From positions 672,001-736,000 of the forward strand of contig OY970065.1 in NCBI GenBank assembly GCA_963705295.1: a DNA stretch of 64,000 bases, read 5' to 3'. The position numbers were made by a program, and so were the translations under genes. Positions 30,794-37,371 of the stretch are shown here, in pieces (the stretch's first letter is position 1; each line of letters starts with the position of its first letter). A model generated the notes under the pieces. The model had not been told where the DNA came from. It saw only the letters and a list, made by a program, of their open reading frames with translations, and did no database searches. Source of the stretch: Parachlamydiales bacterium. Its GTDB lineage: Bacteria > Chlamydiota > Chlamydiia > Chlamydiales > Rhabdochlamydiaceae.

Positions 30794-30931
30794 ATGTTTG
30801 ATAAGAATGAAGAAGATGACACTTTTGATCTTGATTTAGAAATGAAGAAAGAAGATGAGCTGCAAGCTCAAGATGGGATGGCTTCTAGAGTCGCGCAGAT
30901 TCCATGCAGTACACGTTGTCCTACGAGATAA
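30794..30931 (+). CDS. lanA: Lanthipeptide precursor LanA1 (45 aa)
   Basis: GGAGG RBS at 30781; MFDKNEEDDTFDLDLEMKKEDELQAQDGMASRVAQIPCSTRCPTR; FDLD leader motif and Ser/Thr/Cys core. Confidence 0.88.
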   Translation: MFDKNEEDDTFDLDLEMKKEDELQAQDGMASRVAQIPCSTRCPTR

Positions 30932-30934
30932 GTT

Positions 30935-31072
30935 ATGATTGATCAAGACCTTTTAGATCTCGATTTGGAAATTAAAGTGGAAGAGCTATCACCTTCACAA
31001 GATGCGAGAGCATCAAAACTTTTTGGACTACCGTGTAGCAACGCTTGTGGTCCACCACCCACCAAAAGGTAA
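30935..31072 (+). CDS. lanA: Lanthipeptide precursor LanA2 (45 aa; missing from ORF track)
   Basis: Manual translation MIDQDLLDLDLEIKVEELSPSQDARASKLFGLPCSNACGPPPTKR; starts 3 nt after LanA1 stop. Confidence 0.88.
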   Translation: MIDQDLLDLDLEIKVEELSPSQDARASKLFGLPCSNACGPPPTKR

Positions 31073-33673: not shown

Positions 33674-36253
33674 AGCTCGGTCGACTCCAAGAAGCCGGTT
33701 GCAGTGCATGTGAAAGAGGCTTGTTAAAGAGGGCATCAAGTGGGGATGTTGAGCCGCGCGCCTTTTTTCGGTTAAATTTCCCCAGGGGTTATTTTGAATC
33801 AAAGAAAGCAACTCCGATTTCCATTTTCGAAAACCTTCGAGATATTTTTTATCAAAGGTCGTCGTATCAAACATCGAAAGTCCAAATCCGTGGAGGAGAT
33901 CGATCAAACTCCACGCAGCAACGACGTAATTTGGAAGGTTTGTTTTTTTTGAGAGAAGAGTCAAAGCCAGTTCTGAATCGGCTTGAAAAAAGGTTTCCGC
34001 TGCATCTATTCCTTGTTCTCCACCGTACCGCTCTACTTCTCTTTCGTAGGCCGCAAGGGCCACTTCTTTGATCGATCCATTTTTTAATAGGGGATGGGTC
34101 CAGTCGTGAAACCGTTTAAAAATCGAGGCATCCTCCGTTTTTAAACGGAGTCTTATATGCTCATGATAACGGATATAAAACCACCCATCTGCCTTGATTT
34201 CTTGAACAAAAGGGGCCAGATGTTGGACGAGAAACCGCTCCTCTTCCTCTTTTTTTAGGAAAATTTTAGCGAAAAACCATTCGCTTCCAGGGGGTTTCCA
34301 TCGGACGTCGTGTGGGACAGGGGTATGAGGAATGGAGACAGACTGGGGTGCTGTGAATTTTGGATTTTTAATAAACGGGATCACACATTCTGAAGCATGC
34401 ATTCCCAAATCACTTTTCATCCAACCTTTAAAGCCGATTTTCTCGACGAGGAGAGCAGGCCCTTTTTTGATTGCTGAAACGATCTCTTGCAAATGAAAAG
34501 GAATGGTTCGGTCGAGTAAAATCCGTTGATCTTCCACTGCGAGCTGCACGTACCTGGGAACTTCCCATTTCTCACACCAGAGACTCAGTTTTTCACCGAT
34601 TTTTGCAGGAGAATCTTTTTCGGTCGCATCGATCAGCGCGAGGGTTGGGCACCACCTGGCTGGTGAAAAAATCGTTTTTTTATAACGGAGTCTCGGTAGA
34701 TAAAATGAGTTTTCAAGGCTTCCCCAAATCGAGTCGGTGAAAAGATGGTACTTATCTTTTGAAACTGCGCGAATGAACCGGACAACAGGAGGTGCAAGAT
34801 CGAGATTTAAAACATCGAGCGCTCTTATCACGATCTCTTTCTGGCCATCTTTTAAGGTTAAATAGAGTCTTTTGTCCGTAGCTCCGACATAAATATCATC
34901 CAACGTGAGCGTCGATTGTTTTCCATATCCCAATTCCAGAACAGAGGAGCGAAGATTGGGGTGGATGGCGACATTGGCATGCTTCGGGTTTTGAGGAAAA
35001 TACGAACATTCGACGAAACAACAGTAGGGCTCTAGAGCTTCTTCATCTCGGAGAAATTTCTCGATTTTTTTCGTGGCTGAAGGTTGTAGTAAATCGATAA
35101 AGCGGCCAAAGGAAGAACACCCTTCACTTTCAGCGAGAACAGGGAAAGCAGAAATGAGAAACTCACCACTATTGATCGCTGCAGCCGAGTCAGCGTAAAT
35201 TTCGGTAAACAGATCGAACGAAAGAGGGGCTAGAGTTTTGTCAGGATTGGATGGGATCATGGCATCGGTCAAAACAATCTCTTTTTTCCTGTCTCGAATA
35301 GATTCAACAAAGGCTTGCTGCAGCCAGCTTTCTTCTTTTTTTGGAGAAGTTTTAGATGGGATACCAAGACCTTTATTTTCATCCAAAAGTTCCAGAAGGG
35401 GAACGGTTCTCCATTGTCCGTATCTTTCGAGAAATTTCTCGTGATAATCGCGTAGATACTTTGTTCCAGGTGACATTTTCCAGAGAACTTCGACCGATTG
35501 GGTTAGCTCCTCTTGTACTTGATCCGAAAGATAGACCGTCGTTGGACAAACAGCATCGACTTGCAGCTGCACCTCTTCCCCCTTTGAATGATTATAAGTA
35601 GGAACTTCTAATAATGAAGGAAGAATCAAAGGGAGAACAATCTCTTGTTCTACAAGTGTTTTTAGAGTTGTTTCGATTTTTTCAGGTTCTAAAGAAGGAA
35701 ATAGGCTCGAGAGCTCACTACAAACGGTGTCAAAACGGACCGGTTGAGTTGTTTTGTCGAGAATAGCTCGTACTAGAGGGTTTGCTCGGACTGAAACGGC
35801 ATTTCTAATAATTCTTCCCATCGATTCTTGGATCAGAGGATTTTTTTTGATCAGAGTCTGTGGGTGTATTTCTTTCGAAGTTTTAAAAAGCCACTCCATA
35901 TCGGGGCGAGCCCGCTTCTTGATATCCTCAATTTTAAAGGTTCCATCCGTCATGGTATTCCATTCTCCCCAGGAAACAAAAGAAAATAATCCAAAAGGAG
36001 TCGGTCTCGTTGAAATCCGGATTAGATATTTAAAAAGAGGTGCAATGGCCTGTTTTTTCTCTTGACAAAGGGCCTCATACAGAGACGGAGAAGCAATCAA
36101 AATCGCTTCTCGGAGAAGTGGCTTGGATTGAAAATGAGAGAGGATCTCTTTTTCATCGGTGAGTTTGAAAAACTCTTCCAAAGGAAATACCGGTGTTCTC
36201 GCAAGAAAAAAAGGGGCTGGATGGAAGAGGGACTCTATTCTATCAGCGCCCAT
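33602..36253 (-). CDS. lanB: Class I lanthipeptide dehydratase
   Basis: ARTP, KYLIRISTRPTPFGLF, RPD, LQVD, FGRF, LPRLRY...ARW (glutamylation domain); PGSEWFFAKI, YIRY..HIRLR, YEREVERYGG, FQADS, HMHCNRL (elimination domain). Confidence 0.95.
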   Translation of the reverse strand: MGADRIESLFHPAPFFLARTPVFPLEEFFKLTDEKEILSHFQSKPLLREAILIASPSLYEALCQEKKQAIAPLFKYLIRISTRPTPFGLFSFVSWGEWNTMTDGTFKIEDIKKRARPDMEWLFKTSKEIHPQTLIKKNPLIQESMGRIIRNAVSVRANPLVRAILDKTTQPVRFDTVCSELSSLFPSLEPEKIETTLKTLVEQEIVLPLILPSLLEVPTYNHSKGEEVQLQVDAVCPTTVYLSDQVQEELTQSVEVLWKMSPGTKYLRDYHEKFLERYGQWRTVPLLELLDENKGLGIPSKTSPKKEESWLQQAFVESIRDRKKEIVLTDAMIPSNPDKTLAPLSFDLFTEIYADSAAAINSGEFLISAFPVLAESEGCSSFGRFIDLLQPSATKKIEKFLRDEEALEPYCCFVECSYFPQNPKHANVAIHPNLRSSVLELGYGKQSTLTLDDIYVGATDKRLYLTLKDGQKEIVIRALDVLNLDLAPPVVRFIRAVSKDKYHLFTDSIWGSLENSFYLPRLRYKKTIFSPARWCPTLALIDATEKDSPAKIGEKLSLWCEKWEVPRYVQLAVEDQRILLDRTIPFHLQEIVSAIKKGPALLVEKIGFKGWMKSDLGMHASECVIPFIKNPKFTAPQSVSIPHTPVPHDVRWKPPGSEWFFAKIFLKKEEEERFLVQHLAPFVQEIKADGWFYIRYHEHIRLRLKTEDASIFKRFHDWTHPLLKNGSIKEVALAAYEREVERYGGEQGIDAAETFFQADSELALTLLSKKTNLPNYVVAAWSLIDLLHGFGLSMFDTTTFDKKYLEGFRKWKSELLSLIQNNPWGNLTEKRRAAQHPHLMPSLTSLFHMHCNRLLGVDRALEAKAHLFASHALLLLERTVKAV

Positions 36254-37371
36254 GTAAAACGACCTTTTTCGTAGGGAAGAAGTGTGAGTAAGATGCCTGA
36301 AAGACCGCTGAGTAATCCAGGGGGTAACCCAGGGTTCTCTTCATCGAAACTGAGTTTCTCTTTTAACCGGATACTCCAATCCTTCAGTTCTTGAATCTGT
36401 GTATCGTGCGCCATGAGCTGAGTGATGGCAAGGAGACCTGCGATGCCATGGCAAAACGTTTTCTCAAGGAGGCTGAAATCTCGTGAGAAAATGGAAAGGA
36501 ATGCATCGGAAGCAAGCTTCTGCAAAGAAGGAGATTGGAGTGCCGTCCCTGCGAGGTACAAGCTCCGGGCAACTCCCGCCGTGCCATAACACCACGCGTC
36601 CATTAAAAATGAGGCGTCTCTAGATGGCTTTCGACCGACTTCTTCTTCAAAAGAGATCCGATCTGTCCAATACGTTTCTCCTTTTTTCTTAGAGATCAGC
36701 CACCCGGCGATGATTTCGATCGCCTCTCTTTGATGTTTCACTTCGGCACCACCCAGCAAAGCAATGGAAAGAAATGCTAAAACACCCGAAACCCCATGAG
36801 CAAGTCCCTGGTCGAAATTCCCTTCAGGGTAGTTTTGTTTTTCATGATCTGTGAATTGAAATTCATGGGGGACATACCAGCCTGGAATCAGATGCCCTTT
36901 CCACTCAATTTTCTGTGTGAGTTTTACACAGAATTGCAAAGCATCAGAAACGAAGGGGAAGTGATCCAGATAATGTAGAGCATAGACACCGAGTCCAATG
37001 ACTCCGGATACTAAATCGTACATCTCAGCGGGGCAAGGTAGATTCTGTGAGATCTTTCTTTCAAATACAACAGAGTTCAGTTTTGTCAAAAGCTTCTGAT
37101 ACCGTGTCCCGTCTCGAGAGGCCTGTTGAATGGCATAGCAGCATCCTGCAAGGCCTCCAAATAAAGAGAGATCCTTGACTCCCTCTTTTTCGATGGTTTC
37201 TTTAATTTTGAGAATATAGTCGTGACAGACCCGATCAAAACCGTCTTCGGGATAGACTCTGTCCAAATGTGCAAACAGAAGAACAAGTCCAGGATATCCA
37301 TGTGTCAAAGAAAGGGGTGCCTGTTTGACACACGCAGGATTTTTTAAATGAAGAGCATTTTCTAGAACCAC
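36235..37371 (-). CDS. lanC: Lanthionine synthetase (cyclase)
   Basis: Repeated GxxG motifs, YDLVSG, GLAHG (catalytic His), WCYG and CHG (Zn ligands); overlaps lanB start. Confidence 0.95.
   Translation of the reverse strand: MVLENALHLKNPACVKQAPLSLTHGYPGLVLLFAHLDRVYPEDGFDRVCHDYILKIKETIEKEGVKDLSLFGGLAGCCYAIQQASRDGTRYQKLLTKLNSVVFERKISQNLPCPAEMYDLVSGVIGLGVYALHYLDHFPFVSDALQFCVKLTQKIEWKGHLIPGWYVPHEFQFTDHEKQNYPEGNFDQGLAHGVSGVLAFLSIALLGGAEVKHQREAIEIIAGWLISKKKGETYWTDRISFEEEVGRKPSRDASFLMDAWCYGTAGVARSLYLAGTALQSPSLQKLASDAFLSIFSRDFSLLEKTFCHGIAGLLAITQLMAHDTQIQELKDWSIRLKEKLSFDEENPGLPPGLLSGLSGILLTLLPYEKGRFTWALIE

Follow-up and report, generated by a model that had tools for sequence, protein, structure and literature searches.

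A probable class I lanthipeptide pathway with four short precursor units on an accessory island of a Parachlamydiales genome

We analyzed a 64,000-nucleotide stretch of DNA, hereafter the window, from a Parachlamydiales bacterium of the family Rhabdochlamydiaceae (assembly GCA_963705295.1, contig OY970065.1, positions 672,001 to 736,000 of the forward strand), and found that its positions 30794-37371 hold a class I lanthipeptide (lan) locus, composed of precursor (lanA) units, a STAND/TPR gene, a dehydratase gene (lanB) and a cyclase gene (lanC). Judged by its sequences, the class I lanthipeptide pathway of this locus, which lies on an accessory island, is quite likely genuine and intact. An earlier note on this DNA had proposed such a cluster, with intact-looking enzymes and precursors, and the domains, catalytic residues, fold and FDLD-type units described below agree with it; the note had left out the 771-amino-acid (aa) STAND/TPR gene that lies inside the span. 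All reading frames at the locus are open, without a frameshift or an internal stop, and its genes are the following (ORF, open reading frame):

30794-30931, forward strand: lanA1, 45 aa, with leader box FDLDLE and presumed core MASRVAQIPCSTRCPTR (ORF; leader-box alignment with chlamydial precursors).
30935-31072, forward strand: lanA2, 45 aa, with leader box LDLDLE and presumed core RASKLFGLPCSNACGPPPTKR (ORF; leader-box alignment).
31076-31204, forward strand: lanA3 unit, 43 codons without a stop, with leader box YDLDLE and a presumed core from IASRSFCSAAC (NF038155).
31205-31357, forward strand: lanA4 unit, 50 aa, in frame with lanA3 and starting from an ATG of its own, with leader box FDLDIE and presumed core FISRNAASCSCGSCYLSK (ORF; leader-box alignment).
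31358-33673, forward strand: gene of a STAND (NB-ARC-like) NTPase, 771 aa, that has TPR repeats and a single N-terminal membrane helix (Pfam, NCBIfam).
33602-36253, reverse strand: lanB, class I dehydratase with glutamylation and elimination domains, 883 aa (Pfam, alignment, fold).
36235-37371, reverse strand: lanC, cyclase, 378 aa, with a GTG start (LANC_like; NisC alignment).

LanB matched both dehydratase families of Pfam, Lant_dehydr_N (PF04738, E 3.5e-122) and Lant_dehydr_C (PF14028, E 6.7e-44), and LanC matched LANC_like (PF05147, E 6.1e-62), these being the three profile models by which the earlier note had suggested its reading could be checked. The glutamylation and elimination motifs that had been read from the 883-aa LanB were all present (RPTPFG at 83, FGRF at 382, YIRY at 693, HIRLR at 699, EVERYGG at 739 and HMHCNR at 848). 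Its catalytic residues were mapped via a phmmer alignment to NisB (4wd9) and then checked by position, using a list that we take to comprise R83, R87, T89, D121, D299 and R464 for glutamylation and R786, E823, R826 and H961 for elimination, and that reportedly goes back to Garg in 2013 and Ortega in 2015. All ten have a conserved equivalent in the window protein (R79, R83, T85, D118, D233, R384, R703, E739, R742 and H848), and in an alignment of 40 LanBs eight of these ten columns were invariant, with T85 and H848 conserved at 90% or above.

An AlphaFold2 model of LanB, built on the 40-row alignment, reached a mean pLDDT of 86.3 and a pTM of 0.80 and kept, at residues ~134-208, the strand-and-three-helix module where LanBs bind leaders. 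Foldseek aligned the model over its full length with MadB, MibB and NisB (TM 0.73-0.80, E 1e-48 to 1e-57), the structural alignments with solved dehydratases having 18-23% identity; at the level of sequence, matches to solved dehydratases and cyclases had E values of 2e-63 to 1e-37. The window LanB thus shares its two-domain fold and conserved catalytic residues with MadB (9g04/9g05), MibB (5ehk) and NisB (4wd9, 6m7y), but is ~120-230 residues shorter than the solved enzymes, mainly by the loss of a helical insert after the leader-binding region. As to the cyclase, the GLAHG, WCYG and CHG motifs that the earlier note had described as intact were found at 189, 260 and 307. LanC matched NisC (2g02) and 8byk in sequence, and its residues 18-370, which align with NisC 2g02, keep the Asp (YDLV), His (GLAHG), Cys (WCYG) and Cys-His (CHG) that make up the zinc ligands and the catalytic His/Asp. 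The lanC gene overlaps the start of lanB by 19 nt, one of two start/stop couplings at the locus, the other joining lanA4 to the STAND/TPR gene. From these sequences we infer that LanB and LanC would be active in dehydration and thioether formation.

Four FDLD-type leader-core units, starting at 30794, 30935, 31076 and 31205 on the forward strand, were found where the earlier note had placed four precursors; the ORFs themselves number three, because no stop codon separates units 3 and 4. A GGAGGA lies 6 nt upstream of the lanA1 ATG, and lanA2 begins 3 nt past the lanA1 stop. All four units contain the box D-x-[FYL]-D-L-D-[LI]-E, which is common to precursors at other chlamydial lan loci, and a scan of the whole genome for small ORFs with this leader box and a Cys/Ser/Thr tail returned five matches: units 1, 2 and 4, the precursor of a second lan cluster in the same genome and one loose false match, unit 3 being masked by the unit 3-4 fusion. 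The occurrence of the leader box at this locus is far beyond chance. Moreover, the NCBIfam model NF038155 (lanthi_I_FDLD, cut-off 20) matched the fused ORF with 26 bits and unit 3 with 21.5 bits.

The boundaries of the presumed cores were placed by analogy with gallidermin-type chlamydial precursors, in which core positions 3-4 are S-[KR]. In each of the four units an S-[RK] occurs 18-20 residues past the beginning of the box, compared with 22 in the gallidermin-family chlamydial precursors. Delimited in this way, the presumed cores (that of unit 3, taken up to the Met of unit 4, is IASRSFCSAACYHKKENI) comprise 17-21 residues, contain two or three Cys, are positively charged (net +2 to +4), and stop 3-7 residues beyond the last Cys. 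Each of them has a Ser at position 3, a later Cys, a Ser directly after it and a Cys three residues on, an arrangement that suggests two consecutive rings. The positions of the Cys differ between units: Cys lie at positions 10 and 14 in units 1 and 2, and at 9, 11 and 14 in unit 4. Unit 3 alone has the ring A/B spacing of Ser3, Cys7, Ser/Thr8 and Cys11 (here Ser3, Cys7, Ser8 and Cys11), and its alignment with gallidermin-type cores is gapless and has 5 identical residues in 11. What is new here would be these very short predicted cores, of 17-21 residues and two rings.

We then compared the locus with lan loci across the phylum. The rarity in this lineage that the earlier note had implied did not hold up: a survey of 401 genomes sampled from the phylum turned up Lant_dehydr_N in 41, the source genome among them (40 over the cut-off), and clusters were already in print in 2010, in a supplement of 2022 and in 2024. 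The matches are spread over 30 of 212 genera, all of one order, and include a few fragments and one pseudogene. Among 42 chlamydial lan loci (40 fetched loci and the two clusters of the source genome), an adjacent LanC was present in 37 and a LanD-type flavoprotein and an ABC exporter in 7 each, and thus minimal A-C-B clusters are the rule. Convincing FDLD/YDLD precursors were counted by eye, following a pattern scan, at ~23 of the 40 loci. Gallidermin-like cores occur at six chlamydial loci (L033, L034, L035, L039, L057 and L065); they are of the type ITSKSLCTPGCGNTGTxNSFCC, and the two that were scanned, L035 and L039, match PF02052 and TIGR03731. Two divergent LanC paralogues stand beside one LanB at L035, L038, L039, L040, L042, L046, L053, L057, L065 and L067-L069, and three at L047; the window locus has one LanC.

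LanA, LanB and LanC have been described in Parachlamydia acanthamoebae Hall's coccus, with a suggested Firmicute origin (Marsh et al. 2010, PMC3091789, as far as the accessible part of the article goes). Within the supplementary data of Dharamshi et al. 2022 (PMC9666466), an antiSMASH analysis across Chlamydiae gives 14 'Lanthipeptide-class-i' in its total row (Data S10A), the class-i matches being counted in 12 genomes, and one Parachlamydia cluster scored closest to epidermin (Data S10B); the word lanthipeptide appears nowhere in the main text of that article. The accessible text of Maire et al. 2024 (PMC11317633) speaks of a lanthionine synthetase unique to Algichlamydia, and the main text of Walker et al. 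2020 (PMC7268733) leaves Chlamydiae unmentioned. We found no characterized chlamydial lanthipeptide in the literature searched, subscription-only papers lying outside its scope, and within it the corresponding statement of the earlier note stands. Going by the accessible parts of these sources, the window locus resembles the P. acanthamoebae cluster and those of PMC9666466 in its minimal LanA-LanB-LanC make-up, its description in silico only, its Firmicute-related LanB and a shared LanB clade, but differs from them in having four tandem short units rather than one long precursor, an embedded STAND/TPR gene, shorter enzymes and a LanB of at most 39% identity to any in the sampled genomes.

The origin of the locus bears on one alternative, namely that it is an assembly chimera or a contaminant from a Firmicute or an actinobacterium. 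Class I clusters are best known from these two groups, and the nearest non-chlamydial LanBs belong to Bacillales, at ~31% identity. By contrast, every named close relative of the window LanB carries a chlamydial label from its depositor (Rhabdochlamydia, Parachlamydiaceae, Neochlamydia, Simkaniaceae or 'Chlamydiae bacterium'), and its best identity is at most 39% to LanBs of the sampled genomes and 44% to the top metagenomic protein. A LanB search of a genome contig collection returned four actinobacterial loci only, at 25-26% identity, which were kept as outgroups. In a quick maximum-likelihood tree of 58 rows (LG+G4, with support from the SH-like approximate likelihood-ratio test, SH-aLRT, only, and unnamed rows carrying no taxonomy), all 41 LanBs of chlamydial genomes and seven of eight unnamed database proteins formed one clade with an SH-aLRT of 100, its named members all being chlamydial, and the sampled Bacillales LanBs fell just outside it. 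The window LanB, with an end branch of 0.64 against a tree median of 0.58, sits in a 10-row subclade (SH-aLRT 100) together with the LanBs of L035 and L039, both gallidermin-type loci. Family codes are intermixed across the clade, and the second LanB of the source genome and the one further LanB found in the genus (genome G066) sit in different subclades, which points to repeated transfer of lan genes within the phylum, as far as these sequences can tell.

The setting of the locus speaks the same language. The source genome is a single 2.13-Mb contig with six matches to the TLC nucleotide-transporter family, read as four to five genes, and with type III secretion genes. Chlam_OMP6 and Hc1 of Pfam were also tried as chlamydial markers and had no match in the genome; a control panel showed these models to be uninformative, and the TLC and type III secretion genes were used in their stead. 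Eukaryote-like domains are encoded in the window at 21865-22872, 55070-56043 and 57271-58278 (F-box-like, two ankyrin-repeat and collagen-triple-helix-repeat), and these F-box, ankyrin and collagen-repeat genes fit with a host-associated lifestyle. We further compared gene order with the fetched stretches around clpC of eight same-genus genomes (L070-L077). The order PTS-EIIA, MerR-EIIA, amino-acid permease, mnmA ... clpC is kept in seven of the eight, and downstream of clpC lplA is found in six and proS in five, several of the fetched stretches ending short of both. LanB, LanC and the STAND/TPR protein had no match in any of these eight stretches. The distance from the last conserved gene to clpC is 6.8 kb here versus 1.1-5.3 kb in seven same-genus genomes, and, judged by eye, four species carry a small helix-turn-helix gene and one for a membrane protein in the slot between mnmA and clpC, two carry an ABC-type ATPase there and one carries different genes. 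Given this conserved order without lan genes and the differing cargo, the lan genes are an insertion in a variable slot, which spans 28184-37571, from mnmA (with or without a hydrolase gene and a 285-aa gene) to clpC. The features that delimit the insertion and its surroundings are:

30733-37570: extent of the island relative to same-genus genomes, from the conserved 285-aa gene to clpC.
37380-37408, reverse strand: TTGATA-17-GATAAT, the region's best match to a sigma-70-like promoter (10/12), 9 nt upstream of lanC.
37435-37570: 136-bp imperfectly palindromic dispersed repeat, abutting the right edge of the island.

The promoter match is a positional hint only, because the region holds 13 promoter-like matches compared with 9.4 +/- 2.8 in shuffles and so is not above them. 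The island has a GC content of 0.430, next to 0.438 for the genome, and its GC at third codon positions (GC3) and its codon use are within the host range. Neither tRNA nor Rfam features were found as integration sites in the 64-kb window. Taken together, the one long contig, both flanks in conserved same-genus order, host-like composition and codon use, a host-specific repeat abutting the island and the LanB clade argue against a chimera or contaminant, an explanation that is now next to refuted; the island is an accessory insertion of ~6.8 kb and chlamydial origin, and no contaminant. The chlamydial setting given in the earlier note is thereby supported.

The 136-bp repeat has ~40 near-full-length copies in the genome, at 88% identity or more, and was for this reason rejected as a specific signature of the lan island; it has no match in an Rfam family. 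Other copies lie in the window at 14804-14926 and 54878-55012 and at ~6895-7030 of L006, the stretch that holds the second lan cluster. The repeat thus adjoins both lan clusters and lies near several STAND/TPR paralogues. The upstream 285-aa gene (29875-30732, forward strand) had been considered as a member of the cluster since a homologue is found near the lan locus in L061, and was rejected on two grounds: it belongs to the backbone, next to clpC, in three of eight relatives without the island, and it has nine further matches in the genome, some of them possibly fragments of one gene. Its product has an N-terminal hydrophobic helix, no match in Pfam or NCBIfam and, by eye, kinase-like Gly-rich/VLK and HxDD...N/DIG motifs. 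Across clpC from the island, a 617-aa ORF without a family match (40242-42095, forward strand) occupies the interval to lplA and has no counterpart in any of the eight same-genus stretches, and is therefore a second species-specific insertion.

The STAND/TPR gene sits between the precursors and lanB, with its ATG abutting the lanA4 stop (TAGATG) and its 3' end overlapping that of lanB by 72 nt. Its product matched TPR_12 of Pfam (E 2.3e-34) and, weakly, AAA_22, has an NB-ARC-like P-loop and contains a hydrophobic window at residues ~37-60. We considered it as the TPR protein of an FxSxx-COOH system (NCBIfam NF040586) and rejected this, its 210.4 bits being below the cut-off of 300 and the likeness one of architecture only. 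About nine more full- or near-full-length matches (28-61% identity) are distributed genome-wide, away from lan genes, and a distant homologue adjoins the precursors in one other locus, L037. The gene may be a passenger or a partner of the pathway.

Several observations weigh against an intact pathway. Units 3 and 4 form one in-frame ORF (31076-31357, 93 aa) with no intervening stop, which could be damage. Unit 4 scored 11.2 bits with NF038155, below its cut-off, and units 1 and 2 had no match to it at E 10 and were matched by no curated precursor model. The gallidermin/nisin models PF02052 and TIGR03731 matched none of the four units, even at E 10, in a scan in which the precursors of L035 and L039, included as positive controls, scored 46-49 bits. 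A profile of the four units searched against 5.8 billion proteins retrieved no relative, only unit 1 itself, the one unit that occurs as a called protein in that large collection; this is weak evidence of orphan status, because small ORFs often go uncalled. In LanC, Arg280 of NisC, which we take to be non-essential, is replaced by Met. Finally, a scan of 52 ORFs in the window revealed neither an ABC exporter nor a leader protease, a LanD or an immunity gene, and a family scan of the window found no Flavoprotein domain. A predicted complex of LanB residues 1-640 with a LanA alignment scored 0.08 against a mark of 0.32 and carries no weight either way.

These points invite the explanation that the locus is a decaying relic, an island once acquired and no longer used. 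The LanB and LanC of the window (883 and 378 aa) are the shortest among the ~40 chlamydial loci compared, no stop separates units 3 and 4, a gene of a multi-copy family separates the precursors from lanBC and neither an exporter nor a protease was linked in the window scan. Decay does happen in the phylum, as evident from a LanB pseudogene with four stops (three TGA and one TAG within the match, G233:C1:449092-450975, locus L065). Beside that pseudogene lie two LanC genes and four precursor ORFs that look intact. Against a relic, the frames are open, every invariant or catalytic residue is kept, the LanB model is confident and complete, the branch length is ordinary and most chlamydial lan loci are likewise without an exporter or protease. 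As for size, only 4 of the 120 best database LanB homologues, the window LanB included, are below 900 aa, and the shortfall is mainly made up of ~46 alignment columns, which follow residues 216 and 226, with a further ~18 following residue 149; the ~46-column segment is also absent in an intact homologue of 884 aa (P0042), and partly in L030, and thus represents a dispensable insert. Altogether, we consider a relic quite improbable, and an intact pathway remains the reading that we favor.

If the pathway is intact, it would operate as follows. The winged-helix region of LanB (model residues ~134-208) would bind the D-x-[FYL]-D-L-D-[LI]-E box of the leader, and the enzyme, depending on tRNA-Glu, would glutamylate Ser and Thr of the core and eliminate the glutamate to give dehydro residues. 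LanC would then add Cys thiols: ring A would link Ser3 with the first Cys, and ring B the Ser directly behind that Cys with the second Cys, which stands three positions past this Ser. Unlinked functions would carry out leader removal and export, and the products would be peptides of 17-21 residues whose net charge is +2 to +4. The leader cleavage site, the ring pattern and a lipid II target are inferred from the sequences, and we propose the ring pattern and the target only tentatively, as possible rather than probable.

The same genome holds a second, unrelated class I cluster (G000:C1:87079-91848, L006 7079-11848), whose Cys/Thr-rich precursor (76 aa) has a YDLNIE leader. Its LanC measures 461 aa, and its LanB, at 1054 aa, is 38% identical to the window LanB. 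Type III secretion genes (SctN-type ATPase, YscO-like) lie immediately upstream of the cluster, and after it, on the opposite strand, comes a thermolysin-type M4 peptidase (L006 12274-13497) that, by eye, ends in a hydrophobic stretch and is a possible leader protease.

What the peptides would do can be approached through their likeness to known lantibiotics. The ring A/B module of nisin and gallidermin binds the pyrophosphate of lipid II. The window units share with gallidermin, epidermin, mutacin and nisin an FDLD-type leader, S-[KR] at core positions 3-4 and, in unit 3, the ring A/B spacing. They differ from gallidermin and nisin in that the cores end soon after ring B, without C-terminal rings or a terminal Cys pair, and in that units 1 and 2 would form an 8-residue ring A; the window also differs from the epidermin group in having no LanD flavoprotein in its 64 kb, a gene that 7 of the 42 chlamydial loci carry. 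By sequence, then, the units appear to resemble the gallidermin/nisin family from outside its membership. As unit 3 has the spacing of the gallidermin/nisin lipid II-binding module, an antibacterial role, against other bacteria sharing the host, is by this analogy the most likely one.

An active pathway could also yield peptides that are not antibiotics and act on the producer or on its host, as signals or morphogens or on the producer's own lipid II-dependent division. The organism appears to be host-dependent, given its nucleotide transporters, type III secretion and F-box and ankyrin genes, the window scan revealed no linked immunity genes or dedicated exporter, and the cores fall far short of known pore-forming lantibiotics in length. 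SapB-type lanthipeptides, which are non-antibiotic, provide a precedent. They are mentioned in the accessible part of PMC7268733. Nevertheless, the ring spacing of unit 3 and the gallidermin-type relatives point to a classical antibacterial target, and a species-specific island in a variable slot is more in keeping with an accessory trait used in competition than with a core function in development. On this evidence we regard a non-antibiotic role as unlikely, and an antibacterial one as preferable.

A bolder proposal, to which we give an outside chance, is that the peptides belong to 'ring A/B-only' lanthipeptides, minimal binders of the lipid II pyrophosphate without a pore-forming tail, made by an obligately host-associated diderm producer. 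Such peptides might be used within the host cell or vacuole against co-residents, or might tune the producer's own lipid II-dependent division, and on this view the unit 3-4 ORF would be a true precursor with two cores and not a product of damage.

To summarize, about one sampled chlamydial species in ten carries lan enzymes, some together with textbook gallidermin-type precursors, and the present locus offers a compact test case, with four short units and two enzymes in ~3.8 kb of coding sequence when the STAND/TPR gene is left out. From this locus one could learn whether LanB and LanC of chlamydiae are active, which tRNA-Glu is needed and what role two-ring mini-lanthipeptides have. The idea that chlamydial symbionts compete with other bacteria or protect their hosts appears only in general terms in PMC9666466 (in its section 9). 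If the peptides bind lipid II, they would be a molecular candidate for the competition of chlamydial symbionts with intracellular bacteria, or for the protection of their hosts from them.

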